Source: Candidatus Micrarchaeota archaeon (GTDB taxonomy: Archaea > Micrarchaeota > Micrarchaeia > Anstonellales > Anstonellaceae). Taken from it: a DNA stretch of 64,000 bases. The notes under the pieces are model-generated. The model was not told the origin of the DNA. It was given only the letters and a program-made list of their open reading frames with translations, and did not search any database. Numbering within the stretch: position 1 is the first letter of the stretch; every line of letters begins with the position of its first letter. The stretch covers positions 79,730 through 143,729 of the forward strand of contig CAZOMB010000001.1 of NCBI GenBank assembly GCA_964581105.1. The letters are read 5' to 3'. Positions 780 through 28,157 of this stretch are shown here, piece by piece. The position numbers and the translations under genes were made by a program.

Positions 780-1034
780 TTAAAAAGAGCTTTGCCTTAA
801 CTGCCGGCTATCCTTTTTTATCAGGGCAAAATATGAGAGATTTGGGATTCCTAGTTTGTCAAGTAGATTGCCCTTGTCATTGTAAAGCCTCCGGTAAAGG
901 CTTGGGAAAATCCTTTCAAGCTCTAGCAGGGATTTTATGTTCCCTTGTTTTATGATATTTTTTGCGTATGATATTTTTTGTCCAGGTGTCATTAAGCTCC
1001 ATGGTTTATCTAGCTTGAAGCGTGCAGACCTCAT
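780..1034 (-). CDS. hypothetical small protein (84 aa)
   Basis: ORF only; no recognisable motif. Sits between thrS and the pilus platform gene. Confidence 0.25.
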   Translation of the reverse strand: MRSARFKLDKPWSLMTPGQKISYAKNIIKQGNIKSLLELERIFPSLYRRLYNDKGNLLDKLGIPNLSYFALIKKDSRQLRQSSF

Positions 1035-1091
1035 TTGAAGACCTTATTGAAAAGTAGGAGAGAGACACTTAAAAATGCGGCACTTGCTTGG

Positions 1092-2135
1092 CTAAATGAG
1101 CGTGCCGACAAAACCGCTTATCATTGTCTTGAAAAGCCAGAAGAAAAGCCAGGATGCTATTGCAAGAGGCGGGAAATACTTTAAGCCATACAAAAGCCTG
1201 CCTTCTGCTATTACTCCGACAAGTATTGCTGTGAGTATTGATGTGCCGATTATTATTATGACTGTCATCTGGTCTATGAAATTGACATCAACTTTTATTT
1301 TAGGGGCAGAAAGGCCGGCTATTCCGCTTGCTGATGCCTCTCCAAGGCTGCTCTGAATTGAGGCAAATACTGCCAAGAACTGGGTTGAGATTGCCAAAAG
1401 AAGCGGCAAGCCAAACAATAGTATGAATACCACGAATATTGCGTATGTTTTTGTGTTTATGACCATCTGCCTTTTCATTTCCTCGTTTCCCCTTATCTCT
1501 TCTGCAGAGGTTTCAAGCAAGTACGCAAGCCTGCCGCCTGACTTTAGCCCGTTTTCAAAAAAGACAACCATGCGCCGCAGCATTGAGCTGTCAATTGTTT
1601 TTGTAAGGGCCTTTAGCGCCCCTGAGAATGACTCGCTTCCAAGCGAGAGTGAGGAAACATAGGTTATTTCAGACTGGAGTGGGCCGAATTCTGGCCTTGC
1701 TGACGCCTGGAATGCTGCAAATGGGGTCATTCCTGAGCGGAGGTTTGCCGCAACCATGAGCAAAAAGTCTGGCAATACCTTTTCAACCCTCTGGGTGCGC
1801 TCTGCAACAAGGTAATACAAGTGCATGTAAATCAAGGCAGCAGCAACAAAGGAAAAAGCAGCGCCAAATGCAATGCTGACTGCCAGCTTTACAAAAAAGC
1901 TTTCGCTTTCAAGCAAAGGATATTGCGCCAGGTCAAGAAACTGGAAAAGTGAAAGAGGGATAAGAAAGCCTATTATTCCGACTAAGAGGACCAAAAGGAT
2001 CCTTGAGCCCATCCATATTTCCGGGTTTGTGTCTATTCCTGCAAAAGTCAAAAGCTTTGCAACCTTGTCCTTGCCGCGAGGCTTGAAAAAGGAAGAAAAG
2101 CGCTTGCCAATAATGTATTTTGCCATAAATACCAC
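1092..2135 (-). CDS. type II secretion system F-domain membrane protein (TadC/FlaJ-like pilus platform, C-terminal-type half)
   Basis: Multi-TM protein with a cytoplasmic T2SSF-like helical domain (..LRRMVVFFENGLKSGGRLAYLLETSAEEIRGNEEMKRQ..). Adjacent to a second T2SSF-like gene and a FlaI/TadA ATPase. Confidence 0.6.
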   Translation of the reverse strand: MVFMAKYIIGKRFSSFFKPRGKDKVAKLLTFAGIDTNPEIWMGSRILLVLLVGIIGFLIPLSLFQFLDLAQYPLLESESFFVKLAVSIAFGAAFSFVAAALIYMHLYYLVAERTQRVEKVLPDFLLMVAANLRSGMTPFAAFQASARPEFGPLQSEITYVSSLSLGSESFSGALKALTKTIDSSMLRRMVVFFENGLKSGGRLAYLLETSAEEIRGNEEMKRQMVINTKTYAIFVVFILLFGLPLLLAISTQFLAVFASIQSSLGEASASGIAGLSAPKIKVDVNFIDQMTVIIIIGTSILTAILVGVIAEGRLLYGLKYFPPLAIASWLFFWLFKTMISGFVGTLI

Positions 2136-3032
2136 TTACATGAACATGCTTGGCCTCTTGAGCTTTACATAGCCGATTATTGCCAGCTGCCCCAAAAAGC
2201 TCAGGGCGATTATTCCTGCAAATACTTCTGGGCTTATGCCAAGCAAGCCAAATACTGAGAATATTACCAATACTGTTGTGCCTATTGTTGGCAAAACTGC
2301 TGCTGCCATCAAGTATATGAGTATAATGAAATTCAGCTCTGCATTGAAGGACTTGCTCAGGGAAAACTGGTAGTCAACAAGAAGCTTTACTATGCTGCGC
2401 AGTGTTGTTGTAAGGTTTGCGCCTGACCTGATTGCAGTGACAAGCTGCCAGGTTATTTTCTTCAAATATTCTGACTGGGTCCTGATTGCCATGTTCTCAA
2501 GCTCCTGAAGAAGGGGCGAGCCGCCTTTTACCTTGCGCGAGACAATCCTGAACTCCTCGCTTATGTTCTCATAGCTTGAGTTGCCTATATTTTCTATGAC
2601 AGTAAAAAGGGGTATTCCTGAGCTTATCTGTATAAGCATGTCACGCATTGCAAATATGAGCTCCTTGTCGATTTTTGCTGCCATGCCCTTGCCAATCATC
2701 CGCGGATAGGCAAGGTGGAGCACAAGGAAAAATAAAAGCACAACAAAGAATGCAAGGATAGGGAAAAGAAGCTTCAGTGCAGCTGGGGTTGATGCACTTA
2801 CTGAAAGCAGCAGGCCAACAAAAAGCGAGATAAGCAAGGCCCATACTGCTGCTGAAAAGAATGCGATTGCCCCATAGTATTCTGCCTTTATTCTTATGCC
2901 TATGTTCACAAGGTCATAGCGCACGCTTGGGTAAAAGGAAACCAGTTTTACTCCCACTCCCCTGAAGCGCGGGCCAAGTGTTTGCGCGCTTGAAAGCGGG
3001 AAAAGCATGAGGGGAATTCTTTTTATGTCCAT
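2136..3032 (-). CDS. type II secretion system F-domain membrane protein (TadB/FlaJ-like pilus platform)
   Basis: Multi-TM protein with a T2SSF-like cytoplasmic domain (..FAMRDMLIQISSGIPLFTVIENI..SPLLQELENMAIRTQSEYLKKITWQ..). Abuts the previous gene stop-to-start, consistent with a split FlaJ/PilC arrangement. Confidence 0.6.
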   Translation of the reverse strand: MDIKRIPLMLFPLSSAQTLGPRFRGVGVKLVSFYPSVRYDLVNIGIRIKAEYYGAIAFFSAAVWALLISLFVGLLLSVSASTPAALKLLFPILAFFVVLLFFLVLHLAYPRMIGKGMAAKIDKELIFAMRDMLIQISSGIPLFTVIENIGNSSYENISEEFRIVSRKVKGGSPLLQELENMAIRTQSEYLKKITWQLVTAIRSGANLTTTLRSIVKLLVDYQFSLSKSFNAELNFIILIYLMAAAVLPTIGTTVLVIFSVFGLLGISPEVFAGIIALSFLGQLAIIGYVKLKRPSMFM

Positions 3033-3051
3033 TAATGCACCCTAAAAGGGA

Positions 3052-4779
3052 TTACTTTTTTGCGTGGGCCTTTTTCGCAATCTCAAGTATTTCAGCTGGC
3101 TTGCTGTAATAAAGTGCCATTATCCTGCCAACGCTTTCAATGTCAGTGAGCTTGTTTGCAATCATCCATTTGATTATCGTTGCCCTGTTCTTGATGTCAT
3201 GGTTTATTTCCTCTTTTGTCATCCCGGTATGAAGGTTAAGCTCCTTCAGGTACTTGTTTGGCTCGCCAACCTTGTCAAAGCTGTCTGTTCTTGGCCTCCA
3301 GCGGTATACTACGTTTGTTGAAAGGTACTCGTCTTTTGCTCCTGGCACTATTTCTGATATTTCCAATGTTCTCCTGATGTTTTTCCTCCTGTCCCTGTAC
3401 TGGACGACGAGTAGGTTTATTGACTCAAGGTCAGACGGGGGCAGATTAATTGGAGGGGTTGTAAGCCTCCGCAAAGCCTGTGTCCCTGTGTCTGCGTGAA
3501 GGGTTGAGCACACCGCATGCCCAGTGTGCATTGCCTCAAACAAAACTTCTGCTTCCCTCTGCCTTCTCATTTCACCCAATATTATCCTGTCAGGCCTCAT
3601 CCTAAGCGAGGTTACCAGCAAGTCAAGCATTGCAACTTCGCCAAGCCCCTCTGTGTTTTTGTTCCTTGTAAGCAAAGGGATCCAGTTCCACTGGTAAGGG
3701 GCAAGCATAAGTTCCCTTGTGTCCTCAATCGTCACTATCCTCTGGTTTGGCGGTATGAATGCTGCCAATGCATTGAGTGAAGTTGTTTTTCCTGATGCTG
3801 TGCCGCCTGCTATTATCACATTCATTTCATAGTGGATTGCCTGCCAGAGCATGCCTGCCATTTCAGGGGTCATTGAGTTTCCTGGCTCTCCAACAAGGTT
3901 TGCAATTGTCCATGGGCTTCTTGCAAACCTCCTTATTGTTATGGTATTGCCATGTGATGAGACTGGGGACAAAGTTGCGCATACCCTGTCGCCTGTTTCA
4001 AGCCTTGCGTCAAGTATTGGTGTTAACGTTGCAATCTGCCTGCCGACCCTTCTCCCTATTTGCGCTGCATAGTTGAATATTGACTCCTCATCTGGCATGA
4101 AAAGATTTGTTTTCAGCCAGCCAAGCTTCCTGTGGTAAACTCCTATTGGGCTTTTGCCATTGTTTATTATTATTTCCTCGAGCCAGTCATCATGGTTAAG
4201 TATTTCTATTTCCCCAAGGCCAAATAACTTGTGAAGCAATACCCCGGCTATGACGCTTTCAACTTCCTTTTCAAAGCCAAATTGCGCAAGGTACTTTTTT
4301 ATGAGCCTCTTGAATTCTTGTCTTGCCTTTGCAGCCTTTTCAATATCAGAAACATCGCTTTGTAAATTTGCAGGCATTGCACGGAGAAGCTCATCTTTTA
4401 TCAAATCAAGGAATATTTTTGTTGCAGTGCCAAATTCAATAAGGTTGATTGTATATTGCTTTTCCTTTTCAGTGTCTGTAATAACTACTTTTGTTGGCAC
4501 CCCGTCTGCAATAAAAGTATAGCTTGAAATTGTCTTTCCCTTGCCTGTATCTGCACTTTCCTTTGGAGGCTCAGAGGGCAGTGTCCTAAATGAAATTGAG
4601 GGCTTTTCAGTTATGTTTATTGGGTAGTTTATGTCAAGTATTCCCCCTTTTTCCAAAATTGCGCAAATGACCTCAACTGTCTGGTCCTTCATGTGAAGCT
4701 GCTTTGAAAGCTGGCCCAAGCCTATTGACTTTTTCTTTTTCACTGTTGAAACCAGATGGTCTATCTTTGTCTCAAGCAT
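3052..4779 (-). CDS. type II/IV secretion family ATPase (FlaI/TadA/VirB11-like pilus assembly ATPase)
   Basis: Walker A GGTASGKTTSLNALAAF; Walker B/Asp box RIILGEMRRQREAEV; His box HTGHAVCSTLHAD. Length 575 aa with an N-terminal domain typical of archaeal FlaI-like ATPases. Confidence 0.85.
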   Translation of the reverse strand: MLETKIDHLVSTVKKKKSIGLGQLSKQLHMKDQTVEVICAILEKGGILDINYPINITEKPSISFRTLPSEPPKESADTGKGKTISSYTFIADGVPTKVVITDTEKEKQYTINLIEFGTATKIFLDLIKDELLRAMPANLQSDVSDIEKAAKARQEFKRLIKKYLAQFGFEKEVESVIAGVLLHKLFGLGEIEILNHDDWLEEIIINNGKSPIGVYHRKLGWLKTNLFMPDEESIFNYAAQIGRRVGRQIATLTPILDARLETGDRVCATLSPVSSHGNTITIRRFARSPWTIANLVGEPGNSMTPEMAGMLWQAIHYEMNVIIAGGTASGKTTSLNALAAFIPPNQRIVTIEDTRELMLAPYQWNWIPLLTRNKNTEGLGEVAMLDLLVTSLRMRPDRIILGEMRRQREAEVLFEAMHTGHAVCSTLHADTGTQALRRLTTPPINLPPSDLESINLLVVQYRDRRKNIRRTLEISEIVPGAKDEYLSTNVVYRWRPRTDSFDKVGEPNKYLKELNLHTGMTKEEINHDIKNRATIIKWMIANKLTDIESVGRIMALYYSKPAEILEIAKKAHAKK

Positions 4780-4815
4780 GATAATGCCTCTCTTTGTTGT
4801 TTATTAATACTTTTG

Positions 4816-7800
4816 CTAGTCATGCGACGCCACAATACTGCCTTGCTTAACCAGGGCAGAATCTGCATAAAGCCCTGTTATTTCCTGTGCTGAGAAAGAG
4901 CGGTTGAACAGCCTTACCTCGTCTATTGTGCCCTCCCATTCACCTGTGTCTGTGCTTAAGGCTGAAAAGTCGCCTATAATCAGCTCTTCCTGGTTTGGGT
5001 TTGAAAATGTTGATGAATTGTTTACAGTGCCTTGTGCCTGGCCGTTAACATAAAGCTCTTTTGATGTGCCATTGAATGTGAAGGCTATGTGGTACCAGAC
5101 ATCTATTGTAAGGTTGGGGCTGAATGAGAGCGGGTTTTGCAGGTCTGTGTAAGCGTTTCCTGTTCCAAATACATAGCCTATCGCGCCATTGTCGCGGACA
5201 AATAATGTGAAGGGATTGTCAGATGAGTATGCGCCATAGTCAATTGACACAATCCTGTTGTATTTGTTTGAAAATGCAAATGATGCTGCGTTTACCCATG
5301 CGCTGACAGTAAATGTTGTGTTTGGGATTGGCTGGCTTGCAAGCTCTATGAAATCATCTCTGCCATCAAATGTATATGCCCCGCCAATTTTGCCGTTTTG
5401 TGTCCATGTTGGTGAGCTTGATGCCCCTAAAGTTCCATGGCATGCCTTTGAAGAATAGTCTGTTACCATTCCCTTGTTTGAAGAGGAGACATTTGAGTCA
5501 AACGGGAAAAGAGAAACAGCATAAGGTGAGCGGGACCTTACCCTAAGCTCTGCATTGTAGTTTGCTAAAAGTTCCATTGCCTGAAGAGAGGAATTGCTGT
5601 AAGAGGCTGTCAGGTTTATTGTGCATGTGTCCTGGTACTTGCCCTTATAGTGGTCATAAACCTGCGAGTGGCTCAAAAGCCTCTTGTATAGCCTTATCTC
5701 ATCTATCATTCCATTGAAAGTGGCGCCGCCAAGCTCGTTTGAGCCTATTAAAAACTGGGAAGAGGTGTTTATTGTGCCTAAGTTTTGCGCGCCTGCCTGC
5801 AGCACAAGCGAGCCGTCAAGGTATGCTGAATAATTGCCTGTCCTGTTTACAGCAAGGCAGAGCATGTGCCATCTGCCATCAGCAACCTTTATGCTTGGCG
5901 TGATGTTAACCCCGCTGCTGTAAATCCCAAGTGAAAGGTTTTCACTGCTTGCCATTGCAAAGTCAATCCCCTGTGCATTGCCAAATTCATCTGTTCCATA
6001 CTGGTAAATCAAGGATGAGCCTGAGGGCAGCTCCTGGGACTTTACCCATGCAAGCACTGTAAAGTCATATACTTGGGTTATTGAGGCATCGTCAACATAA
6101 GCAACATCTGTCAAAGGAACAGGCACATAAAAGCGTATTTGTATTATTCCTGTGCCTGTGTTGTTTGTCATGAAATTCTGCGTGACTTTTGTGTAATCAG
6201 CTTCAACTAGTGTGCTCAATACTACTGTCCCTCCGTCAGAGGGCTGCCACTGGCCTGATGAGTTAAGGTAATTGTCGTTTGAAACGTCATATATTGCATA
6301 CCTTATGTTCCCTCCTTCGCCTGCGCCTATTATTTTTGCCCAGAATTGCAAGGAGTATTTTGTGCTGTTTTTCAGGGCAAGCTGTGAATTTGCTATGTAT
6401 GAGCCTGAGTTGTTGGCATCATTTTCCATTTTCAGGCCTGCAGTGCCTGAGTGGTTGTGCGTTGTTTCAACTGAAAATGCGCTTCCTGCCCCCACTGCCC
6501 AGTTGTTAAAGTCTGGGCCAGAGTAATACTCAAAGCCCCCGTTGAAGTTTGTGGAATTGTAAAAAGTTACATTGTCAACATAGAAAATATACTCATCTCC
6601 CCCGCTTGTTGCAGGCACAAATTCTATGTCAATTGTTGATGAGCCTGTTGGCACTACAAATTCTTTTTCAATTTGCTGCCATGTTGAACCAGATACTCCT
6701 GTGTCAAGTGGAGTGGCTTCACCGCTCCAGCTGCCATCATCCTGAAGGTAGTTGCCAGTGTCCTCGTCATAAACCCTGTATTTTCCTGTTGTGGAGCCAT
6801 CCCCCCTTGTCCAGAATGAGACCATATACCTGGCATTTTGAACAAGTGAAACCTGCTGGTAAATCCTGTCAGTGTCAGGGCTGTCTGTGCTGTATATTTT
6901 TACTGCGTTTGAGCCGCTTTGCGCTGTTGCTGTTGAATCAAAGTAAATGTTTGGGGCTGTCGGGTTTTCCATTCCCCAGTTCTCAAATGTGTCTGTTTCC
7001 CCATCATCCTGCGTGCCTTCATATGTTTCAAAGTCATTGTTTGAGAGCAGGTTTGCTGTTGGGGGAAATGAAACTTCTGCTTGCGTGAAATCAATATTTG
7101 ACCTGTTTATATAATCGTCCGAGCCGTCAAACCTGTAGCAGCCATATCCTCTTATGCAGCCAGGCTCCCATAACGGGGCATTTGCCTGCGTGCCTCCCCC
7201 TAGCGTCATATTATTTGCAAATTGCGAATAATCAAGAATAGCACCTGTGTCTGTTGAGCTTACATTTGAGTCAAATGTAAGAACCAGATGGGCACTTGGG
7301 CTTTTTGTATATGAAACTGTTGTAAGGTTGCCATCTGCGCTCAAATTTGATATGAAAGACAGGTTTGTGCCATCAGAAAAGTTGACTGAGTAACTGGTTA
7401 TGCTCACTGGGTCTGCAAGTATTGAGGTAGTTTCCTTGCTCCCAAGATCAGAGTAAGCCACTGTGTAGTTTATTGCAGGGCTGCCCCCTCCAGATGCTGC
7501 AAGTGGCACTATTGACTCGTAGTTTTTTTCACAGTAAATTGAAAGGTCAATATAAGCAGGGCTCCAGCCTTGCGGATGAGTATAAGATATGTTGTCTGTA
7601 TTGTTTTGCCCATTGTTGCTGTGGGAATAGGCACCAGAGTCAGGCAAGTTTACAACTGTTGCCTGCTGGCCCATAAATCCGTTTGAAACCAGGACCAGTT
7701 CATATGGGTGCTCTTTTACAAGCATTGGGATTTGCCTTGAATATTTTGACAGGTTTGCCAAAGCAAGGCCCTCTTTGCTGAAGGGGAAAGTTGTTTGCAG

Positions 7801-8040
7801 GCTAACAGAAGCATGGGTGCCATTCTTGCTTATTTGCGTGCTTTGGCCTATTAGTGAAGAAAAGTCATAGCCAATTATCCCTGAAAGCCGCAAGGCTTGT
7901 GTTGCATGGGCAAGGTTTGCCTGTGCCTGGCCCTGGCTTTTTCGCCACTCAAGGGCAAATGCTGCAAGAGTTATTATTGCAGCTGAGATTAGGATTATGG
8001 AAATCGTGAATGTGTAGCCCTTTTTTCCAATTGCCCTCAT
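4816..8040 (-). CDS. giant secreted pilin-like protein with class III signal peptide and multiple LamG (concanavalin-A-like lectin) domains, heavily N-glycosylation-sequon-rich
   Basis: Probable start MRAIGKKG|YTFTISIILISAAIITLAAF, a prepilin-type motif (K-G then a hydrophobic stretch). Laminin_G_3-type signatures IDEIRLYKRLLSHSQVYDHY and IDEVRLFNRSFSAQEITGLY. Dozens of NxS/T sequons. The ORF-track start at 8061 is an alternative codon; the ATG lies at 8038-8040. Confidence 0.6.
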   Translation of the reverse strand: MRAIGKKGYTFTISIILISAAIITLAAFALEWRKSQGQAQANLAHATQALRLSGIIGYDFSSLIGQSTQISKNGTHASVSLQTTFPFSKEGLALANLSKYSRQIPMLVKEHPYELVLVSNGFMGQQATVVNLPDSGAYSHSNNGQNNTDNISYTHPQGWSPAYIDLSIYCEKNYESIVPLAASGGGSPAINYTVAYSDLGSKETTSILADPVSITSYSVNFSDGTNLSFISNLSADGNLTTVSYTKSPSAHLVLTFDSNVSSTDTGAILDYSQFANNMTLGGGTQANAPLWEPGCIRGYGCYRFDGSDDYINRSNIDFTQAEVSFPPTANLLSNNDFETYEGTQDDGETDTFENWGMENPTAPNIYFDSTATAQSGSNAVKIYSTDSPDTDRIYQQVSLVQNARYMVSFWTRGDGSTTGKYRVYDEDTGNYLQDDGSWSGEATPLDTGVSGSTWQQIEKEFVVPTGSSTIDIEFVPATSGGDEYIFYVDNVTFYNSTNFNGGFEYYSGPDFNNWAVGAGSAFSVETTHNHSGTAGLKMENDANNSGSYIANSQLALKNSTKYSLQFWAKIIGAGEGGNIRYAIYDVSNDNYLNSSGQWQPSDGGTVVLSTLVEADYTKVTQNFMTNNTGTGIIQIRFYVPVPLTDVAYVDDASITQVYDFTVLAWVKSQELPSGSSLIYQYGTDEFGNAQGIDFAMASSENLSLGIYSSGVNITPSIKVADGRWHMLCLAVNRTGNYSAYLDGSLVLQAGAQNLGTINTSSQFLIGSNELGGATFNGMIDEIRLYKRLLSHSQVYDHYKGKYQDTCTINLTASYSNSSLQAMELLANYNAELRVRSRSPYAVSLFPFDSNVSSSNKGMVTDYSSKACHGTLGASSSPTWTQNGKIGGAYTFDGRDDFIELASQPIPNTTFTVSAWVNAASFAFSNKYNRIVSIDYGAYSSDNPFTLFVRDNGAIGYVFGTGNAYTDLQNPLSFSPNLTIDVWYHIAFTFNGTSKELYVNGQAQGTVNNSSTFSNPNQEELIIGDFSALSTDTGEWEGTIDEVRLFNRSFSAQEITGLYADSALVKQGSIVASHD

Positions 8041-9149
8041 CAGCTTACACCCCTGTACCATGCCTTGATGATAGCATAATAGTAAATGTCCTCATCCTGG
8101 TTTGCGTTGTGTGCAAATGGGAATTTCAAAACCTGCTGCTCTCCTTTTGAATAAGTGCAGTTGTGCTTGTTCACTGTATAAGCAAGGTTTTTGCTGTTTG
8201 AGTAAAGCTCATTTATTTCTGATTGAGAAAGCGGCTTGCTGTAAAGCCTGATTTCATCAATTGCGCCTATTAATCCATTTGAAAATGTGCCATTGAAATA
8301 GTCTGCCCCAATCCATGCATTGTTTGTGTTGTTTATTGGCAATGCTGAGCCAAAGCCTGTTGAAATTGAGCTCTGGTTTTGAGAATCAATGTACATTGTG
8401 AGGTTTCCTGTTGACTTGTCAAATACTGCGACAATGTGCTTCCACCCTGCCCCTGATATGCTTGAGTCTGCAGAAACAACAGTGCCATCATCATTGCAGT
8501 CATTTGATGATGAGTAAAAGCATGCACATGGCTTTCCTGATGAGTTGTCATAATATATCCTGTAGCCAGGGTAAAAGCCAGATTGGGGATATTTTCCGAA
8601 TATTGTTGGAGTTGAAGGGTTTTGGCTTGAAGTTACATTCAGCCAAAGGCTTATTGAAAAGCTGTCATTTTCTGGGTTTAAGTCAGGGGAATCTGTTATG
8701 TTTATTACTTGGGAGCCATTGAAATTAATTGCCCCTCCTGCTTTTCCCTTGAGCAAAGAGTAAGGCGAGCCAAATATTCGCCCAATATTCCTGTTGCCTG
8801 ATGAGTCTTCTGCGTTTTTTCCTGTTTCATCAAGCTTCCAGTATGCAACAAGCCCGTCTTTTACAGCTATCCCATACACAGAAACCTGCATGCACACTGA
8901 TTGCGGTGTTTTTCTCAATACCTGCCTTATCCCAGATGTGTTTGAGTTGTTAACAGAGTCAAAAGGGTCTGACAAATAGCCTTTTTCAGACATTATTGTT
9001 GCAGCATCTTGCATGTATTGGGAAAGAAGAGTGCCTGAAAGCGTGCTTTTTTGCGGCGCAGAAAAATAATAGGCAGCCAGGGCTATTACTGCAAATAAAA
9101 GCAGGAGAGCAAGCACAATGTCAAATGTCAGGAAAAAGCCTTTTTTCAT
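8040..9149 (-). CDS. pilin-like protein with class III signal peptide and C-terminal LamG domain
   Basis: True ATG at 9147-9149 gives MKKG|FFLTFDIVLALLLLFAVIALAAYY. LamG signature IDEIRLYSKPLSQSEINELY. The stop/start ATGA overlap with the upstream pilin gene suggests translational coupling. Confidence 0.55.
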   Translation of the reverse strand: MKKGFFLTFDIVLALLLLFAVIALAAYYFSAPQKSTLSGTLLSQYMQDAATIMSEKGYLSDPFDSVNNSNTSGIRQVLRKTPQSVCMQVSVYGIAVKDGLVAYWKLDETGKNAEDSSGNRNIGRIFGSPYSLLKGKAGGAINFNGSQVINITDSPDLNPENDSFSISLWLNVTSSQNPSTPTIFGKYPQSGFYPGYRIYYDNSSGKPCACFYSSSNDCNDDGTVVSADSSISGAGWKHIVAVFDKSTGNLTMYIDSQNQSSISTGFGSALPINNTNNAWIGADYFNGTFSNGLIGAIDEIRLYSKPLSQSEINELYSNSKNLAYTVNKHNCTYSKGEQQVLKFPFAHNANQDEDIYYYAIIKAWYRGVS

Positions 9150-9664
9150 AAAATCCTTCCTTTTTTGCCCCAAACCTGCACTTTTAGGGTTGCAATCGAA
9201 TCGTTCATCAGCACAAGCCTTTCTGTGCTTATTGCCAGTGTTGTGCTGTTGTTAAGGTCTGCTGAAATTCCAAATGAATAAAGCAGGGCTGTTGAGTTGT
9301 TCAAAGCAATGTAAATGTCAAACCTTCCTGCCCCCATGCTTTCCTTAATGTCCTGGTAATTGGTTGCATTCAATGACTCAAGCTTTGAGAATTTTGTTGG
9401 GGAAAGCCTGTTGCTTCTTGTTGCAAGGCCTATTGCGCTTGCATTTTCCATTTCACTTTGTTCCCAGCCAGAAGGCTCTCCAGGCGAAAGCACAAGCATG
9501 TCTGATATTCCGAAAAGCACTGTCTGCATTTCCCTTTCCATTTTCTCTTCTGAGTAAGCAGAGTGCATTGCAGCCCATATTGCAACAAAAAGCATTAAGG
9601 CGCCTATGAAAAGGGCAGATGCAATTACCAGCTCTGCTGAAAATATTTGCGCCTTTTTTTCCAT
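9146..9664 (-). CDS. pilin-like protein (class III signal peptide)
   Basis: N-terminus MEKKA|QIFSAELVIASALFIGALMLFVAIW has the shape of an archaeal type IV pilin signal peptide. Lies in an operon with the other pilins. Confidence 0.5.
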   Translation of the reverse strand: MEKKAQIFSAELVIASALFIGALMLFVAIWAAMHSAYSEEKMEREMQTVLFGISDMLVLSPGEPSGWEQSEMENASAIGLATRSNRLSPTKFSKLESLNATNYQDIKESMGAGRFDIYIALNNSTALLYSFGISADLNNSTTLAISTERLVLMNDSIATLKVQVWGKKGRIL

Positions 9665-9666
9665 AA

Positions 9667-10077
9667 TCATAACTCTCCAATATAAATTGTGCCTTCAGTG
9701 TTGTTTACATATATGTTAGAATTCAGGGGGATTGTGCTGCCTGAAAGAATTGTGTTGTTTGTGGAAAGCGGAACAGATACATAGCATCCTGCCTTGCATG
9801 CTGCTTTTACTGCCCTGCCCCCGTAAATCGTGATGTTGCTCACTCCTTTTGCAGCTGAATTGAAAAATACAATCTTGCTCCCGTTTCCTGCTGCTGCAAC
9901 CTTGTTTATTGCAATTGCAACCTGGCTTGCTGCTGCTGATGCCTGGAGGCTTTGCCCAAGTATGGCATTTTGCTGCTTTAGATGCCCGCTTGCAATGTAA
10001 ACTGAAAGCAGGAAAAACAGCATCACGCCTGCAACAAGCACTGCCTCAGGGGCAATCTGCGCTTTTTTGCCCTTCAT
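9667..10077 (-). CDS. pilin-like protein (class III signal peptide)
   Basis: N-terminus MKGKKA|QIAPEAVLVAGVMLFFLLSVYIA; 136 aa; 4-nt overlap with the downstream pilin gene. Confidence 0.5.
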   Translation of the reverse strand: MKGKKAQIAPEAVLVAGVMLFFLLSVYIASGHLKQQNAILGQSLQASAAASQVAIAINKVAAAGNGSKIVFFNSAAKGVSNITIYGGRAVKAACKAGCYVSVPLSTNNTILSGSTIPLNSNIYVNNTEGTIYIGEL

Positions 10078-10080
10078 CTC

Positions 10081-10959
10081 CTACCCCGCATTAACATCTG
10101 CTGTTATTGGAATTGTGAATGTCTCCTCAATGCCAGTTGCCTGCGATACTCCTGTTATGACCAGCTCAGAGTTGTATAGGCCTGCTGCGCTGGTGTTTGA
10201 TGCAAATGACAAGTTAATTGCTGTGTCAGAATCAATTGAAACATTAAATGAGGATGAAGAAAGGGTGAGGCCAACATTTTCATATGCCCATGAGCAATCT
10301 ATTGAAACTGCTACAGACTCGTTTGAAGCAGCGCTGAATGTGATAGTTTCATTTCTTGTCTCATTCCTTGCCATGCTCTTGTAAACAGAGCCTTTGTCAA
10401 CATCAAAAAAGTGCGTGCCTATTGCAACATAGCTTCCTTTTGAAACAACGAGCATTGTGTATACCCCGTCAGAGGCAGGGAAAGAGCCTGAAACCGGGGC
10501 TTTTGTTCCTGCAAATACGTCAGTATCCTGCACTTTTATGTTTATTAGAGTGGAAGCTGTTGAGGAAGAGGCGCTTGGCGGCCTTCCTATATATGTTGCA
10601 TTAGGGCTCAGGTTTGCATTTGTAGGAAGGGTTATCTTGACTTTTGCGCTTGCTCCTTCCCCTTGGGCATAGACTGAGTCTGCTGCATTTGCCAGTTTTT
10701 GCACTGAGTCTTTTGCGTCATCATAGTTCCTTTGTACCCCAATATCTGAGAGAAGGTCTGCTGAAAGCACTGCAAAAATCAGGATTACCACAAGGGAGAT
10801 TCCAAGTATTGAGATAAGCTCTATGCTTGCCTGCCCAGGCACTCTGCCTGCTCTTATGTGCCTTGGGCTGGCACCTGCCTGCCCGCTGTGTGCCATTTGC
10901 ATGGGAGTGTAAACCATGCTGTGCTTTAAATATTTTCTATCAGAGGCATTAGCATGCAA
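10081..10959 (-). CDS. pilin-like secreted protein (class III signal peptide); true start probably an internal Met
   Basis: ..RAGRVPG|QASIELISILGISLVVILIFAVL is a prepilin-like hydrophobic N-domain followed by a Ser/Thr/Asn-rich body. The ORF start overlaps the divergent ligase start, so an internal start is likely. Confidence 0.4.
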   Translation of the reverse strand: MHANASDRKYLKHSMVYTPMQMAHSGQAGASPRHIRAGRVPGQASIELISILGISLVVILIFAVLSADLLSDIGVQRNYDDAKDSVQKLANAADSVYAQGEGASAKVKITLPTNANLSPNATYIGRPPSASSSTASTLINIKVQDTDVFAGTKAPVSGSFPASDGVYTMLVVSKGSYVAIGTHFFDVDKGSVYKSMARNETRNETITFSAASNESVAVSIDCSWAYENVGLTLSSSSFNVSIDSDTAINLSFASNTSAAGLYNSELVITGVSQATGIEETFTIPITADVNAG

Positions 10960-14068: not shown

Positions 14069-15655
14069 CTATCTTTTTGCAAGCGAGTAGATGTCCCATT
14101 TTATTGTTTTTTTCTTTTCAAGCTCTTGCCCAAGCTGGTCAAGGACTGATTGTTTTGCCTTTTTGTAATCATCCTTTGGAATTTCAGCATTTCCTATAGC
14201 ATTTCTCTTGTTTTTTGTGTTAAAGCAGAACATAGAGTCATGCACATTTTCACAGTTGTGGGAAAAATACAAATCAGTGCATTCCTCGCAGTTGTCAACC
14301 TCAAAGCACCGGACAAGCCGCTTTGAGCGGAATGCCTTCATGCAAAAGGATGACTGCCATACTGATGAAGAGCCGAAAATGTTCTCTGATTCCCTTGGCC
14401 AGAATGAGTAGGCGCACTTTTTTGAGTGGACAGTTGCCTCGCAGCGATAGCAGTTTTCAGAGTATCCCATTGCAAAGCAGTCAATCATGTTATGGACTTT
14501 TCCTATCCTGTCATCAAGAGAGCAGTATGCAACAGGGTGGAATATTTCTGCCAATTCTTTTGGGTCAGGAATGATTTTCCCAGTATCAAGTTTACTCAAT
14601 GGTACTTTGCCGATTTCATTGATTTCATCCTCTGAAACAAATCTGCCATTCAGCTTGAACTTTTTACCAATGTACGCAAGGTAGCCTCCAAGAAGCACTT
14701 TTCTCCCTGTGAATGGGGAGGTAAATTGCATTCCCTGCAAAACATCCCTTTGCAGGAATTTTTCATATTGTTTTATTCCTGCTAGTGGCTTTGCAACAAG
14801 GATGGATGAGGTTTTTGTGAAGCTTTCTTCAATTGGCTTCAAATTCCCTTTTTCAGGCTCTGGTGGTATTGCTATTTTTATCTCTGGCTTTTTTTCCCTT
14901 GCAAAGTCAAGTATTTCAAAAATGGAGAAAACCTTTTTTTCTTTTTTCAGGGAACCAACAATTTCTTCAAGAAGCTTTGATTTTACTGCTAGGTATTTTT
15001 CCTTTCCAACTTCAAGATTGCCAATAAGATATGACTTGTTCCTTGGACCAAAAGAAAACATGCATTCGCGGCAGTTTTTGCACTGGACTGAGTAATAGCA
15101 GTCGCTGCTTGCCATTAGTGTGCAGCACTCAAAGCATCTTTTTCCCTTGTGGTTGTCAACTGAATTTATTGTGAATGAGGACTGGGCATCTGCAGTTGAG
15201 CCAAACATGTATTCGCAAAAGCGAATCATTGTGCAAAAAGCAATGTATTTTGAGTCAGAAACTATTGTTGAGCCAAGGACATAGTGGCTGTCAACAACAT
15301 TGCTTGATTCTTCCACGAATTTTGAATTTCCAAGCACTATGTTCCCAGTATAATGGATTCTTTCCTGCATTGCCGATATTATGCTGTCTATGTCCTTGAT
15401 TTCATTTATTGAAAGTGGAGTGAAGCTTTTGCTGAAATCAACCTCATCAGAGCCCAAAAAGTTAGCGCCATGCTTGAATGATTCTGATGGCATTATAACT
15501 TTTTTCCCAGAAACTGTTGAGCTTTCAACAAACCTTTTTCCTGCATATGCTGAAAGGTATTCTGAAAACTCGTCAAGCTCTCCTATTTCCTGGCTGAAAA
15601 TGGCCTTGCAGGTTGCTTTCCAAGCCCTATTCAGGTAGTCATGTGTGCTTAACAT
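14069..15655 (-). CDS. Cys-rich two-module protein, paralog A of an unrecognised family (~528 aa from the internal Met)
   Basis: Collinear homology over the full length with ORFs 18172-19773 and 23926-25478. Shared blocks include NRAWKATCK, IKDIDSII, YTGNIVLGNS, CKNCRECMFSF, IGNLEVGKEKY and the C-terminal CEECTDLYFSHNCENVHDSMFCFNTKNKRNAIGN..IYS. No signal peptide. The likely start is MLSTHDYLNRAW (15653-15655), by alignment with the paralogs. Confidence 0.6.
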   Translation of the reverse strand: MLSTHDYLNRAWKATCKAIFSQEIGELDEFSEYLSAYAGKRFVESSTVSGKKVIMPSESFKHGANFLGSDEVDFSKSFTPLSINEIKDIDSIISAMQERIHYTGNIVLGNSKFVEESSNVVDSHYVLGSTIVSDSKYIAFCTMIRFCEYMFGSTADAQSSFTINSVDNHKGKRCFECCTLMASSDCYYSVQCKNCRECMFSFGPRNKSYLIGNLEVGKEKYLAVKSKLLEEIVGSLKKEKKVFSIFEILDFAREKKPEIKIAIPPEPEKGNLKPIEESFTKTSSILVAKPLAGIKQYEKFLQRDVLQGMQFTSPFTGRKVLLGGYLAYIGKKFKLNGRFVSEDEINEIGKVPLSKLDTGKIIPDPKELAEIFHPVAYCSLDDRIGKVHNMIDCFAMGYSENCYRCEATVHSKKCAYSFWPRESENIFGSSSVWQSSFCMKAFRSKRLVRCFEVDNCEECTDLYFSHNCENVHDSMFCFNTKNKRNAIGNAEIPKDDYKKAKQSVLDQLGQELEKKKTIKWDIYSLAKR

Positions 15656-15780
15656 AAAACTCCGGGAAAAACTTGAAGATGGGAAAATAAAAAGCTGCGT
15701 GCCTTTTTCTGCAAAATGATACGAAAAACCCATTTAACGTCGTAAAAGCAAAAATTCTCAGAACGCGCGGGTTCGGGAAC

Positions 15781-15820: not shown

Positions 15821-16885
15821 ATGGACAGTTTAGTAAAATCAGTCCTAGGAGAGCAAGAGTCAGCTCAACAGCCGGAATCTTTTGGCTCAGACCAGATTAA
15901 GATTGTGACACTCGGTGTAGGAGGAGGCGGAAACAACACAATAAACAGGCTTATTCGCTCAGGAGTAAAGGGATGCGAGCTTGTGGCAGTTAACACTGAC
16001 AGGCAGCACCTGAATATGATCCACGAAAAAGCCAAAAAGGTCCTCATCGGAAAAACCATTACCAAGGGGCTTGGGGCCGGCGGATACCCGGAAACAGGCA
16101 CCAAGGCAGCAGAAATTGACAGGCCACTTCTTGAGAAAGAGCTTGAAGGGGCTCACCTGTGCTTTATCTGCGCAGGAATGGGCGGAGGCACTGGAACCGG
16201 AGCAGCACCTGTAATTGCAGAGGTTGCAAAGGAGCAGGGAGCCATCGTCGTTGCAATGGTAACATATCCCTTTAACCTTGAAAGGGCACGAAGGGTAAAA
16301 GCCGATGAAGGAATCGCAAAACTTCGCAAGAATGTTGATTCAGTCATTGTTCTTGACAACAACAGGCTGGTAAAGCTTGTGCCAAACCTTCCAATGAACG
16401 AGGCGTTTGCAGTTGCAGACGAAATTCTCGCAAAGGCAGTTGGAGGACTTGTTTGGACAATTACCCAGCCAAGCCTGATAAACATCGACTTTGCTGATGT
16501 GCGAGCAATCGTACAGGGCGGAGGCGTTGGCTTTATTGCTGTCGGCGAAGGAAAGGGAACCGACAAAGTCAGGGGAGCTTCTGAAGGAGTTCTCAAGAAC
16601 AGGCTTCTTGATGTTGACTATGAGGGTGCAAATGGCGCGCTCATACACATATCAGGCGGTGCTGACCTGACACTTGGGGATGCCATCAAAGCAGGTGAAA
16701 TAATCACTGAAAGGATGGACCCGCAGGCAAATGTCAAGTGGGGAGCAAGGCTCATACCAGGATACGATGGAAAACTGGAAATAGTTGCCATTGTAACCGG
16801 GGTAAAAGGAGCAAACATCTTTGGCGCAGGAGCAGACGAGCCAAAGAAAGAGGCATCCTACCAGGACATAGAAATTATCGGCTAA
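15821..16885 (+). CDS. ftsZ: cell division GTPase FtsZ (paralog 1)
   Basis: Tubulin/FtsZ signature [11 protein letters not shown] and [20 protein letters not shown]; 354 aa. Confidence 0.9.
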
Positions 16886-18171: not shown

Positions 18172-19773
18172 ATGGGCATAAACAGCGCATGGAAATCAAC
18201 CTGCAAGGTTCTCCTGAAAGAGGAGATTGGCGACCTCAAGGGCTATGAGTATTACCTGAAAAAATTTATGGGCCCTGTGAGCGCAAAAAGAAAGTCAGTG
18301 CTGTCAGGAAAACAAGTGACAACTGCTGATGATGATTTTGGGCTGCCAACCAGGTTTATCTCAAATTCAGAGAGGGAGCAATATGCTAAGCTGTACTCAA
18401 AGCCTTTTGACATCAACAGGATAAAAGACATTGACTCTGCCATCCAGGAGCTTGAAGAGCGCTTCATTTACTCAGGAGACATTGTGCTTGGAAAGTCAGT
18501 GGCTGTTGAAAACTGCCAAAGGTGCACAGATGTTTCAGATACTTATTGGTCACAGGATGTTTCTGACAGCAGGAATATTGCCTATTGCTCAATGCTGCGC
18601 TATTCAACTTTTGTTTTCGGGTCAGACTGCACAGGGGAAATAGATTTTGTTATCAAGAATTTCCAGGGCTGGAAGAGCAGAAGGCTTATGGAAACAACAA
18701 ATACCCAGTACTGCTCAGATGTTTACTTTAGCGCAAACATGAGGTACTCTGCAGAGTGCATGTTCTGCTTTAATCAGGAAGGAAAAAGAAATATGATAGG
18801 GAATTTGCAGCTTGGCAAAGATGAATATTCTAAGCTCAAGCAAAAGCTGGTTGAAGATATTAGAGGAGAGCTTGGGTCAAAAAAAGATATTGTGTCAATA
18901 AATGAGCTTCTTGGCGCGCCTCCAAGGGCAGGCAAATGCGAAAAAAGGCCTGCAACCTGGGATGTTGGTGGAAAAAAACATTTTGCAAGTGATTGCCCGC
19001 AAGAGCTGGACAAGGCATTTGCTTCTGCCTGCTCAGTGCTTTTTGGAAGAAAGCTATCAGGAAAAATGACTGATTATGAGAAATGGCTCATGAAAAATGT
19101 GCGTGCGCCGCCTAAGTCAAAAAGTAAGTTATCAGGAAAAAGCCTTTACATTTTGCCAATCCTGTTCAATGAGCCTGTGAGAGACACGCACATAAGCCTT
19201 GAGGAGGCAAGGCAGGCGTCACGACTTCATATTTCTGAAGAGGATGCACAAAAGCTGTGCATCTCAAATGCAAAGCAAATACTAAAGCCAGTTGCACTTT
19301 TCACGTCAGATGTAAAGCTGGGGGAAAATGTCCAGGTAAAAGACACTGTGAGCTTTGCTGATTCAATAAATATTTTTGGCAGCTCAACAATGTATGGCTC
19401 AAAAAACTGCGCATATGGCTGCTGGGTGTCGCACAATGCTGAAAATATGTTTGGCTGCGACCACACCTTTTACTCAAAATTCTGCATTCATGCATACAGG
19501 TCCCTAAAGCTTGTAAGATGCTTTGAAATCAGCGACTCAAAGGACTGCTCTGACTGCTTTTTTTGCCACAACTGCGAAAACTGCCATGAATGCATGTTCT
19601 GCTTCAACGTGAAATCAAAGCGCTATGCAATAGGCAATGTTGAGGTGGGAAGGGAAAAATATTCCAAAATCAAGAAGATGCTGCAGCAGGAGATTGCAAA
19701 AAGGCTTGAAGAAAAAAAGGAAATTGGCATTGGAATTTACAATATAGGGTGTCAAATCAAGGGAAAAAAGTGA
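18172..19773 (+). CDS. Cys-rich two-module protein, paralog B of the same unrecognised family (533 aa)
   Basis: Homologous to 14069-15655 and 23926-25478. Motifs SAWKSTCKVLLKEEIGDL, IKDIDSAIQ, YSGDIVLGKS, ECMFCFNQEGKRNMIGNLQLGKDEY. The C-terminal module contains a regular C-x2-C array, DCSDCFFCHNCENCHECMFCFNVKSKRYAIGN, ending IYNIGC. Confidence 0.6.
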   Translation: MGINSAWKSTCKVLLKEEIGDLKGYEYYLKKFMGPVSAKRKSVLSGKQVTTADDDFGLPTRFISNSEREQYAKLYSKPFDINRIKDIDSAIQELEERFIYSGDIVLGKSVAVENCQRCTDVSDTYWSQDVSDSRNIAYCSMLRYSTFVFGSDCTGEIDFVIKNFQGWKSRRLMETTNTQYCSDVYFSANMRYSAECMFCFNQEGKRNMIGNLQLGKDEYSKLKQKLVEDIRGELGSKKDIVSINELLGAPPRAGKCEKRPATWDVGGKKHFASDCPQELDKAFASACSVLFGRKLSGKMTDYEKWLMKNVRAPPKSKSKLSGKSLYILPILFNEPVRDTHISLEEARQASRLHISEEDAQKLCISNAKQILKPVALFTSDVKLGENVQVKDTVSFADSINIFGSSTMYGSKNCAYGCWVSHNAENMFGCDHTFYSKFCIHAYRSLKLVRCFEISDSKDCSDCFFCHNCENCHECMFCFNVKSKRYAIGNVEVGREKYSKIKKMLQQEIAKRLEEKKEIGIGIYNIGCQIKGKK

Positions 19774-19931: not shown

Positions 19932-20987
19932 TTGGGCTATATGTTTGAAAGCGTATCTTCGGAAAAAAAGGAAACAGAAACACTCATGAGCAATGAGGAG
20001 GTAAGAATAGCTGTAATTGGAGTCGGCGGAGCGGGCTGTAACACTGTTGGAAGGATGATGAGAAGCGGGATAAAAAGTGCCCAGACAATCGCTGTTAATA
20101 CTGACCAGCTTCATTTGAAAGTCACAAATGCGCACAAAAGGGTTTTGATTGGCTCAAATATCACAAAAGGGCTTGGGGCAGGAGGATTTCCTGAGGTTGC
20201 CACAAAATGCGCTGAAATGAGCAAAGGAAAACTTACAGAAGTAATTGGCCCCCGTGAACTTGTTTTCATTGCAGCAGGAATGGGAGGAGGCACTGGAACC
20301 GGAGCAGCACCTGTAATTGCAGAGGTTGCAAAAAACCAGGGAGCAACAGTTGTTTCTGTTGTTACAATCCCATTCAGGCTTGAAAGGGCAAGAGTGCAAA
20401 AGGCAAAATGGGGCCTTGAAAGGCTTGCAGCAGTTTCAGACACTGTTATAGTGATTGAAAATGACAGGCTTGTGAATTATGTGCCTAACCTTCCTATCAA
20501 TGATGCATTTAACCTGGCAGACGCAATCACTGGCAAGGCAATTACAGGGATTGCTGACACCATAATGTTCCCGTCACTTATGAACATTGACTTTGCAGAT
20601 GTTAAATCTGTGATGGACAATGGGGGCTTTGCCTTGATTTCAATGGGTGAGGGCAGAGGGCCTGACAGGATTGAGCAGGTTGCAAGAAGCACTCTTGAAA
20701 ACCCTCTGCTTGATGTTTCTGCTGAAGGCGCAAAAGGGGCATTGCTTCACATTGGAGGAGGCCCGCAGCTTACCCTTGGAGAGGGAATTGACATTGGAGA
20801 GAAGATTTCAGAGAGCTTTGACCTGAATGCTGACGTAAAAATAGGCGCAAGGCTTGACCCAACCCTTGGAGACGGGCTTTCAGTAACTGCAATAGTAACT
20901 GGCATACACAACCCATATGCACAAGGGACAGCAAAAGCAGACAAGCAAGCCGAAAAAGTCGTGGAAATGGATGTAATCAACTTCTGA
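19932..20987 (+). CDS. ftsZ: cell division GTPase FtsZ (paralog 2); first ATG at 19941 (the ORF-track start at 19932 is TTG)
   Basis: GVGGAGCNTVGRM and [23 protein letters not shown]; 351 aa. A 48-nt tract within the GGGTGTG region is identical to ftsZ1. Confidence 0.9.
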   Translation: MGYMFESVSSEKKETETLMSNEEVRIAVIGVGGAGCNTVGRMMRSGIKSAQTIAVNTDQLHLKVTNAHKRVLIGSNITKGLGAGGFPEVATKCAEMSKGKLTEVIGPRELVFIAAGMGGGTGTGAAPVIAEVAKNQGATVVSVVTIPFRLERARVQKAKWGLERLAAVSDTVIVIENDRLVNYVPNLPINDAFNLADAITGKAITGIADTIMFPSLMNIDFADVKSVMDNGGFALISMGEGRGPDRIEQVARSTLENPLLDVSAEGAKGALLHIGGGPQLTLGEGIDIGEKISESFDLNADVKIGARLDPTLGDGLSVTAIVTGIHNPYAQGTAKADKQAEKVVEMDVINF

Positions 20988-23812: not shown

Positions 23813-23925
23813 GAAAGTGGTTTGTCTTTAGACCTATTTAATGCTTTGCATAATGTGCACCAGTGGTGGTGTGCTATTATATAAATATAAGGCAGGTGAA
23901 ATTAAGTGTTAGGAGAAGGATTTAT

Positions 23926-28027: not shown

Positions 28028-28157
28028 AGAAAGGTATGCCCCTGTAGCTCATCGGTAGAGCGGCTGCCTTGTAAGCAGCAGGTAGTGGGTTCAATGGACC
28101 TTTTTCGGGATGCCTAAAAAGCTCCACCAAAAAGGTCTGAAAATCCCATCGGGGGCT
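28028..28157 (+). tRNA. tRNA-Thr (anticodon UGU) with a ~47-nt T-loop intron
   Basis: GCCCCUG-UA-GCUC-AUCGGUA-GAGC-G-GCUGC-CUUGUAA-GCAGC-AGGUA-GUGGG-UUCA[AUGGACCUUUUUCGGGAUGCCUAAAAAGCUCCACCAAAAAGGUCUGAA]AAU-CCCAU-CGGGGGC-U, then a T-run. The intron termini (GGACCUUUUU / AAAAAGGUCU) are complementary. Confidence 0.7.

Follow-up and report, generated by a model that had tools for sequence, protein, structure and literature searches.

The question raised by this locus is whether a DPANN archaeon displays carbohydrate-binding modules as parts of its own pilins and, if so, in what kind of assembly they would be held. The stretch analysed (64,000 nucleotides of contig CAZOMB010000001.1 from a Candidatus Micrarchaeota archaeon, hereafter the window) carries a pilus operon on the minus strand, in which genes I, H, G, F, E, ATPase, TadB-like, and TadC-like are transcribed in this order, followed by an open reading frame (ORF) of 84 amino acids (aa). 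The letters I to E denote five proteins with prepilin-like N-termini, and two of these, F and E, are large proteins with lectin-type modules. The reading that we consider reasonably probable is that the operon encodes an adhesive type IV pilus (T4P) with the modular lectin minor pilins E and F at its tip. The operon and its five pilin-like products are listed below, with an arrow at the predicted cleavage site and residues numbered from it.

1092-10917, minus strand: pilus operon of eight genes, from ORFs and gene calls
10081-10917, minus strand: pilin-like protein I, 278 aa; cleavage predicted at PG↓QASIEL, Q at +1 and E at +5; longest ORF from 10959
9667-10077, minus strand: pilin-like protein H, 136 aa; KKA↓QIAPE, Q at +1 and E at +5
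9146-9664, minus strand: pilin-like protein G, 172 aa; KKA↓QIFSAE, Q at +1 and E at +6
8040-9149, minus strand: modular pilin F, 369 aa; KKG↓FFLTFD, D at +6; Laminin_G_3 at 1e-22
4816-8040, minus strand: giant modular pilin E, 1074 aa; KKG↓YTFTIS, no acidic residue at +5/+6

All five N-termini display the class-III pattern, i.e., a basic leader, G or A at position -1, and a hydrophobic stretch, which is 20 residues long in each case, with a mean Kyte-Doolittle value of 2.3-2.9. When ORFs of at least 40 aa in the six frames of the 64-kb window were scanned with the rule [KR][GA][QFY]...acidic/ST followed by a hydrophobic stretch, the matches obtained were genes of the pilus operon only, so the prepilin cluster is not a chance pattern. 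The class-III assignment of the five putative pilins rests on this motif, on its conservation, and on synteny. An earlier note made from the letters of the window without database searches (the sequence-only reading) had described a minus-strand operon with five prepilin-type N-termini, and this description was borne out, the arrangement being conserved in more than 20 related DPANN loci.

The fifth protein, E, combines a pilin module with LamG domains and carbohydrate-binding modules (CBMs) in a single chain, for which the following domain map was obtained.

7309-8040, minus strand: pilin module of E, aa 1-244, like the ~290-aa fifth pilin of DPANN operons
7066-7308, minus strand: first strands of LamG domain 1 of E, aa 245-325, with the motif FDSNVSS...YRFDGSDDYI, from internal comparison
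6556-7050, minus strand: CBM_4_9 domain 1 of E, aa 331-495, apparently nested in LamG domain 1; PF02018 at 1e-7 with the isolated segment
6073-6546, minus strand: CBM_4_9 domain 2 of E, aa 499-656, apparently nested in LamG domain 1; PF02018 at 4.7e-7 with the isolated segment
5641-6072, minus strand: body of LamG domain 1 of E, aa 657-800; Laminin_G_3 at 2.2e-21; FTVLAWV at 660 and IDEIRLY at 779
4858-5535, minus strand: complete LamG domain 2 of E, aa 836-1061; Laminin_G_3 at 5.9e-27 over model positions 1-150; IDEVRLF at 1039

The Pfam search gave two Laminin_G_3 matches (1.7e-44) and two CBM_4_9 matches in E, and one Laminin_G_3 match in F, and the LamG domains that the sequence-only reading had seen in the two large pilins are thereby upheld; the CBM_4_9 domains of E had not been mentioned there. 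The LamG motif proposed in the same reading stood in part: its core, IDE[IV]RL[YF], occurs three times in the six frames, always in E or F, but the longer regular expression fits only one of these copies exactly. The pilin module was recognized by a profile of fifteen fifth-position proteins, which matches E 5-244 at 8.4e-16, and the [KR]G[FY]TFT[IL]S motif is kept in all members of this family. A profile of the N-terminal part of LamG matches E twice, at 245-321 and at 837-902. At the level of sequence, the nesting of the two CBM4_9 domains within LamG domain 1 is supported because E 245-311 and the start of LamG domain 2 (E 836-898) share 43% identity, because the Pfam match on the LamG domain 1 body begins at model position 14, and because the LamG start segment and body are contiguous in P0022, a protein of 794 aa without CBMs. 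In the PDB, only weak LamG-type sequence matches were found with E and F, namely, 4qvs, which is the match of E LamG domain 2, and a pentraxin.

An assembly artefact is ruled out for E, since the identical sequence is present on at least four independent contigs and since full-length homologues of similar length and at the same operon position were found (P0002 and P0023, 39-40% identity). When 1.84 billion representatives were searched exhaustively with E 1-290 (HMMER), only 39 proteins were returned, among them approximately five fused forms (794-1086 aa, each with Y at +1), fourteen proteins of 497-533 aa, and a few basal ones of 275-326 aa; the rest included several giant LamG-repeat proteins that match the LamG-start segment alone. 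Word-indexed homologue searches with E, with F, and with an 18-sequence alignment of the E family gave 4-8 proteins each. By the HMMER search, the E family is rare and confined to one clade of Micrarchaeota.

The fourth protein, F, carries a single LamG domain, whose position within the chain is given in the following lines.

8847-9149, minus strand: N-terminal part of the F pilin module, aa 1-101, comprising the signal, the alpha-1 helix, and the first beta strand; profile match
8202-8846, minus strand: LamG/ConA-like jelly-roll of F, aa 102-316, inside the pilin module; Pfam Laminin_G_3 and Foldseek
8043-8201, minus strand: C-terminal part of the F pilin module, aa 317-369; profile match

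A profile built from thirteen fourth pilins of ~140 aa from other DPANN archaea matches F on both sides of the Laminin_G_3 region and skips that region, with residues 1-101 matched at 2.2e-24 and profile positions 90-136 placed on F 317-366 at 1.4e-5. The LamG domain, judged from this alignment, is therefore inserted within the pilin module and not appended to it, and a conserved Cys flanks the insertion on each side. The AlphaFold2 model of F, which was used solely for the order of secondary-structure elements and for the LamG fold, shows helices at 4-56, a strand at 85-95, the beta-sandwich, and then three strands at 321-365. A Foldseek search with the sandwich of this model retrieved ConA-like carbohydrate-binding folds (AbnA domain 4 at 3.4e-12, clostridial toxin Hc-N, and CBM40). 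Full-length homologues of F, at 33-40% identity, were found in close Micrarchaeota only.

The N-termini and the modular structure of E and F bear directly on another reading, according to which both would be surface adhesins or envelope proteins held by uncleaved signal anchors, encoded within the pilus operon and absent from the filament. This is quite unlikely in our estimation. It would agree with the lack of a significant match to any pilin profile, with F or Y at position +1 of F and E, against Q in I, H, and G, and with the finding that the distal half of E is a classical Sec-secreted protein in sister genomes. However, the [KR]G[FY]TFT[IL]S and KG↓F(V/F)(I/L)(S/T)xD motifs are fixed by operon position, and the same motifs occur in proteins of 140 and 290 aa that have no adhesin module, in many DPANN lineages; moreover, LamG has been inserted into a conserved small-protein scaffold, and the scaffold was not replaced.

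The conservation of this scaffold was followed in 80 loci from species-representative genomes, which were retrieved by their ATPase and in which ORFs were called and labelled by phmmer against the window proteins. The closest ATPase relatives (74-83% identity) are all from Candidatus Micrarchaeota/Anstonellaceae metagenome-assembled genomes, and the more distant loci belong to Iainarchaeum, Woesearchaeota, Aenigmatarchaeota, and other DPANN. The order I-H-G-F'-X-ATPase-TadB-TadC, with cleavage motifs specific to each position, was found in more than 20 DPANN loci. The recurrent set consists of an I-type protein (250-1054 aa, G↓QASxE), an H-type protein (~130 aa, A/G↓QxSxE), a G-type protein (~170 aa, G↓QIFSxD/E), a fourth pilin (~140 aa, G↓FVISLD), and a fifth pilin (~290 aa, G↓FxFTIS) without an acidic residue at +5/+6. 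A protein of ~150 aa is often encoded after the TadC-like gene; some lineages have no I-type gene or have an inserted gene for a small membrane protein. On the evidence of gene order and motifs, the operon is a conserved DPANN type.

Several related loci contain additional genes that are absent from the window operon. A KaiC/RecA-like P-loop protein of 226-238 aa is encoded just upstream of the I-type gene in L034 (5289-5969), L042 (5445-6152), and L046 (4886-5602), and a protein of 76-87 aa with two transmembrane (TM) segments is encoded upstream of the I-type gene in L026 (5139-5369) and L031 (4173-4424) and downstream of the fifth pilin in L066 (6656-6919). The DPANN-type ATPase/operon was also encountered in bins labelled as non-DPANN or as candidate phyla radiation, namely, L081 (Falkowbacteria), L026 (Thaumarchaeota), and L072 (Methanosarcinales), due to either mis-binning or horizontal transfer.

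The origin of the large size of E can be approached through the sister Micrarchaeota, in which the same sequence is distributed over two genes. The fifth-position pilin of L004, L009, L021, and L028 (and of L005, where it is truncated) has 497-512 aa and aligns end to end with E 6-513, and the C-terminal ~560 aa encoded by the gene after this pilin in the same five loci align with E 506-1073. The partner protein of the split pilin, of 814-1287 aa, is Cys-rich in its N-terminal region and has a Sec-type signal. The ATPase gene is directly next in the fused forms (window, P0002, and P0023), and the next gene in the split form P0029 encodes a 2990-aa beta-helix/LamG protein. From these alignments, E looks like a fused form of the ~500-aa pilin and the C-terminal CBM-LamG-LamG cassette of a Sec-secreted adhesin, so that the adhesin would here be covalently wired to the pilus. 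From such fused and split pairs it can be argued, in the Rosetta-stone manner, that the pilus and the large secreted LamG proteins of Micrarchaeota work as partners. Fused E-type forms of 794, 910, and ~1075 aa exist in close relatives, next to split forms and adhesins of more than 3000 aa, and this variation in module number is what would be expected of determinants of host range or ligand specificity.

The split point in the sister genomes lies between CBM1 and CBM2, i.e., inside LamG domain 1. The split pilins keep the LamG-start segment (FDSN...FDGxDDY), whose conservation of 0.51 compares with 0.52 for the pilin module and 0.45 for the CBM, and each partner protein has two LamG bodies and a single LamG-start segment, that of domain 2. 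A doubtful proposal is split-LamG docking, in which the pilin would donate the missing strands to the adhesin and would load it at the pilus tip by complementation. If true, this would be a previously undescribed way to load a non-pilin adhesin onto a type IV pilus, in a group, the DPANN archaea, for which little is known about the apparatus of attachment to hosts.

Even larger proteins of this kind were encountered. The ORF directly upstream of the pilus ATPase in the close relatives L007 (31-9939) and L074 (152-9805) has at least 3200-3300 aa and extends past the fetched locus, and its C-terminus matches E 507-1073. The metagenome proteins P0036 (6100 aa, with 11 matched stretches) and P0050 (4298 aa) contain many LamG repeats of the E type. 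The adhesin size is extremely variable within the Micrarchaeota clade.

The remaining pilin-like proteins, I, H, and G, are without lectin-type modules in the feature list above. Homologues of G in 46 loci carry G↓QIFS(T)D. The H family comprises proteins of ~130 aa in 25 loci, with the motif A/G↓QxSxE, and 4 of 10 of its members gave weak matches to Class_IIIsignal, the best with an E-value of 0.02. H may be regarded as the best candidate in the operon for the major, filament-forming pilin. Protein I belongs to no Pfam family; its homologues occupy the first operon position in 34 related loci and usually have 600-1054 aa.

Some features of protein I deserve separate mention. It is short (278 aa) in the window and in close relatives, and reaches 600-1054 aa in most other DPANN loci (e.g., L026, L031, L043, L044, and L048); the lineage with enlarged pilins 4 and 5 is the one with a shortened pilin 1. 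The predicted leader is atypical, with up to 28 residues and P at -2. A TATA-like AATATTTAAA is located 10-20 nt upstream of the annotated ATG, and the true start of protein I may therefore be an internal Met.

The sequence-only reading had also pointed to very many NxS/T sequons in the two large proteins. The enrichment is real, but it is common to all five pilin-like proteins, which have 2.9-4.1 sequons per 100 aa, against 0.36 per 100 aa in the other ORFs of the window. The lowest of these densities is that of I (2.9), and the highest is that of G (4.1). The enrichment is approximately 8-11-fold in all five proteins and lies 2-5 standard deviations above composition-matched shuffles; no enrichment was found in the ATPase and platform proteins. 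The pilin subunits are probably heavily N-glycosylated.

The assembly machinery that would act on these subunits is encoded by the last three genes of the operon.

3052-4779, minus strand: secretion/assembly ATPase of the FlaI/GspE/TadA superfamily, 575 aa; Pfam T2SSE at 1.4e-32
2136-3032, minus strand: membrane platform protein 1, TadB-like, 298 aa; one T2SSF domain, Pfam 2.8e-14
1092-2126, minus strand: membrane platform protein 2, TadC-like, 344 aa; one T2SSF domain, Pfam 8.1e-12

These matches agree with the FlaI/TadA ATPase and the split TadB/TadC halves that the sequence-only reading had recognized. Of its label for the whole locus, Tad/archaeal T4P, the archaeal T4P part is supported, and the locus is not a bacterial Tad locus. 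The best NCBIfam model for the ATPase is FlaI (278 bits, 1.5e-82, below the cutoff of 550), with TadA at 170 bits, and the closest PDB sequence is A. fulgidus GspE (2oap, 5.5e-71), followed by FlaI (1.6e-54) and then by CpaF. Each platform protein has 4-5 hydrophobic segments; platform protein 1, with approximately five, is encoded directly 3' of the ATPase in 75 loci, and platform protein 2 is kept in 71 loci. Of the elements that define an archaeal T4P locus according to Makarova et al. (2016), a VirB11/FlaI-family ATPase and a FlaJ/TadC-type platform, the latter in two genes, are present.

The same ATPase is relevant to the question of whether a filament is formed at all. The Bas system of Sulfolobus is a surface assembly for sugar-binding proteins, and the window operon might likewise encode a bindosome- or pseudopilus-like assembly that holds carbohydrate-binding class-III proteins at the cell surface, with no extended adhesive fibre. 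In line with this, two of the five substrates carry CBM4_9/LamG modules, neither the operon nor the window contains an obvious small major pilin, and the BasE model also matches the ATPase (residues 196-559, 8.8e-40). However, the BasE score of 137 bits is far under both the cutoff of 1000 and the FlaI score of 278; the set of five pilins, one of them without an acidic residue, resembles a set of major and priming minor pilins, and the H-type proteins are of pilin size, with ~130 aa conserved. In addition, DPANN genomes are described as small and largely host-dependent (PMC11291902, PMC12710345), which would favour attachment over polysaccharide foraging. A bindosome-like assembly is therefore rated as unlikely, in comparison with the adhesive pilus.

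A third alternative is a filament for DNA uptake or for cell bridging with material exchange, in which the lectin pilins would serve only for target recognition. The import of DNA or nutrients by DPANN pili has been speculated upon (PMC5498576, PMC9563170), and the machinery found here is of the generic type IV filament kind. At the same time, no gene resembling a DNA-binding pilin, ComEC, or a retraction ATPase is present in the operon, which has a single ATPase, and this alternative is very improbable.

Under the preferred reading of an adhesive T4P, a prepilin peptidase encoded elsewhere would cleave the five substrates after G/A, and the ATPase and platform would pull the subunits from the membrane for polymerisation via their N-terminal helices. 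The fibre would be built of small Q(+1)/E(+5) proteins, most likely of H, or of an unlinked small pilin, and E and F would prime assembly and remain at the tip, where glycans of a host cell, a partner cell, or a polysaccharide surface would be the most likely ligands of the LamG/CBM modules. The tip location is suggested by the E-type N-termini without an acidic residue at +5/+6, by analogy with GspK.

Several points weigh against this scheme. Analogy is the basis for placing E and F at the tip, for glycan binding and glycosylation, and for the identity proposed for the major pilin. No curated pilin or class-III profile from Pfam or NCBIfam is significant on any of the five proteins, and the best profile scores are sub-threshold (for H relatives, Class_IIIsignal at an E-value of 0.02 and the archaellin N-terminus at 0.11). 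The AlphaFold2 model of F is only moderate, with a mean predicted local distance difference test score (pLDDT) of 61, and the pilin fold is not structurally established; the model of E, obtained from a 3-sequence alignment, is unusable (mean pLDDT 36.6), and its domain map is sequence-based. A small (~70 aa) stand-alone major pilin was not found in the window. Finally, a prepilin peptidase was not seen in ~81 kb of the contig. The 64-kb window, in which the sequence-only reading had found no such peptidase either, is without an ORF that combines four or more TM segments with a GxGD-type motif, and no Peptidase_A24 is listed among the called genes ~7 kb to the left and ~10 kb to the right of it.

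With respect to the layout of the operon, the gene calls were taken from identical public contigs. The junctions between the operon genes range from -4 to +57 nt only, and the operon is therefore likely to be one transcription unit. Every long ORF between 780 and 10959 is on the minus strand. The divergent upstream neighbour is an ATP-dependent DNA ligase gene, and a threonyl-tRNA synthetase gene is located downstream. One further ORF follows the operon.

780-1034, minus strand: 84-aa ORF after the operon, without a signal sequence or TM segment

Pfam and NCBIfam gave no family match for this ORF, no homologue of it was found in the 80 related loci, and its only matches among 82 loci are the two copies of this same genome; it is probably outside the pilus system.

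Other parts of the window provided additional observations. A paralogous family without a Pfam match is encoded at 14069-15733 (minus strand), 18172-19773, 23863-24714, and 24711-25478 (all plus strand). The 554- and 533-aa paralogues each contain two repeats of ~250 aa, which are 34% identical, and the halves of these paralogues have their counterparts in two separate genes, adjacent to each other, of 283 and 255 aa. Two of the paralogues are the immediate neighbours of the two FtsZ paralogues (15821-16885 and 19932-20987), and a connection with cell division is suggested by this position. A 2031-aa ORF (42025-48120, minus strand), in a region that otherwise has housekeeping genes, is flanked by a 213-aa ORF and a kinase-like gene; it matches no Pfam family at an E-value of 0.01 or below, and membership in the E/LamG adhesin family was rejected for it, as no similarity was found. 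A third tRNA was detected by Rfam at 28038-28111 (plus strand) with 32 bits, just over the gathering score, and was not called by ARAGORN.

As to the significance of the locus, the DPANN archaea cultivated to date are all ectosymbionts that depend on touching a host cell directly (PMC11291902). The molecules of this contact are mostly unknown, and the locus supplies concrete, testable candidates. No new kind of machine is revealed by it; at the same time, the modular-pilin principle is extended from bacteria to archaea, as E and F each consist of a pilin module and a non-T4P module in one polypeptide, by which a modular pilin is defined (Raynaud et al. 2021, PMC8179133).

Among known systems, the bacterial modular pilins with PF13385/ConA-like lectin modules are widespread; a location at the tip has been proposed for them, and PilC of S. 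sanguinis is one of them (PMC8179133). A glycan-binding minor-pilin complex involving PilC has also been described (PMC9934059). The window proteins resemble these pilins in the combination of an N-terminal pilin module with a LamG/ConA-like lectin, in the location of the gene among the minor pilins of a pilus operon, and in the proposed tip display and glycan adhesion. In contrast to the bacterial proteins, they are archaeal, with class-III N-termini and without the N_methyl/IPR012902 signature; the LamG of F is inserted, not appended, and E, with 1074 aa, has four modules with nested insertions. No sequence homology was detectable between PilC and the window proteins.

GspK, the tip pseudopilin of the type II secretion system, is without the conserved acidic residue and initiates assembly, and its insert is an alpha-domain. 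In the T4b minor pilin CofB, the additions are a beta-repeat and a beta-sandwich domain (PMC8179133). E is like GspK and CofB/TcpB in being the largest minor pilin, in having no conserved acidic residue, in bearing an extra domain, inserted or appended, and in its presumed place at the tip, whereas no sequence relationship exists between them. The likeness to PilY1/PilC of T4a pili concerns the Sec-secreted LamG protein of the sister genomes, which would be a non-pilin adhesin carried by minor pilins; unlike PilY1/PilC, there is no beta-propeller (IPR008707), and the adhesin cassette in the window is covalently part of the pilin.

Several candidate counterparts were rejected. TafC (NCBIfam NF052521) scored 49 and 40 bits, far below its cutoff of 410, and matched in the LamG region only; the subunits of Tat-fimbriae are secreted via the Tat pathway (PMC11821415), and the window proteins differ from haloarchaeal TafC in their class-III-type N-termini and in the assembly system. 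The bacterial Tad (Flp) pilus was rejected in view of the archaeal host and since no Flp_Fap, TadE, secretin, or TadV match was obtained on the operon proteins; one relative of H matched TadE at an E-value of 0.37 only. The Sulfolobus Bas bindosome was set aside because the window ATPase reached 137 bits with the BasE model, whose cutoff is 1000.

Among the closest archaeal counterparts are the clade 1 pili modelled by Makarova et al. (2016), which have an ATPase and two TadC genes; their minor pilins number at least five, and a pair of large DUF2341 (ConA-clan) proteins are the predicted tip adhesins (PMC4858521). The window operon shares with this clade (Methanococcus Epd-type) the ATPase with two TadC-type genes, several putative class-III minor pilins, the residue Q at +1 of pilins, and two large proteins of the ConA superfamily. 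However, its large proteins carry Laminin_G_3/CBM_4_9 and not DUF2341 (no PF10102 match at an E-value of 0.1 or below on E or F), and they are prepilin-like themselves. The ATPase of clade 1 is of the CpaF/EpdL group (arCOG01819), and the window ATPase scores higher on FlaI/afGspE than on CpaF/TadA. EppA, FleN/MinD, and a small (~70 aa) major pilin were not found in the window locus.

Within the Micrarchaeota, two T4P loci have been reported for Mia14 ('Ca. Mancarchaeum acidiphilum'), together with an expanded set of LamG-like proteins, 'some linked to type IV pili loci'; its only prepilin peptidase is encoded at a distance from these loci (PMC5498576). Mia14 and the present archaeon have in common T4P loci with TadC genes and class-III-type pilins, and expanded LamG-like jelly-roll proteins, whereas LamG within pilins, the order of five pilins, and the fusion/split relation are not described in that publication. 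The general picture of lectin modular pilins and of a link between LamG and pili in Micrarchaeota is therefore already known; relative to the literature cited here, the DPANN-wide order of five pilins with its motifs, the LamG insertion in the fourth pilin, the nested multi-module fifth pilin, and its fusion/split relation with the neighbouring adhesin appear undescribed.

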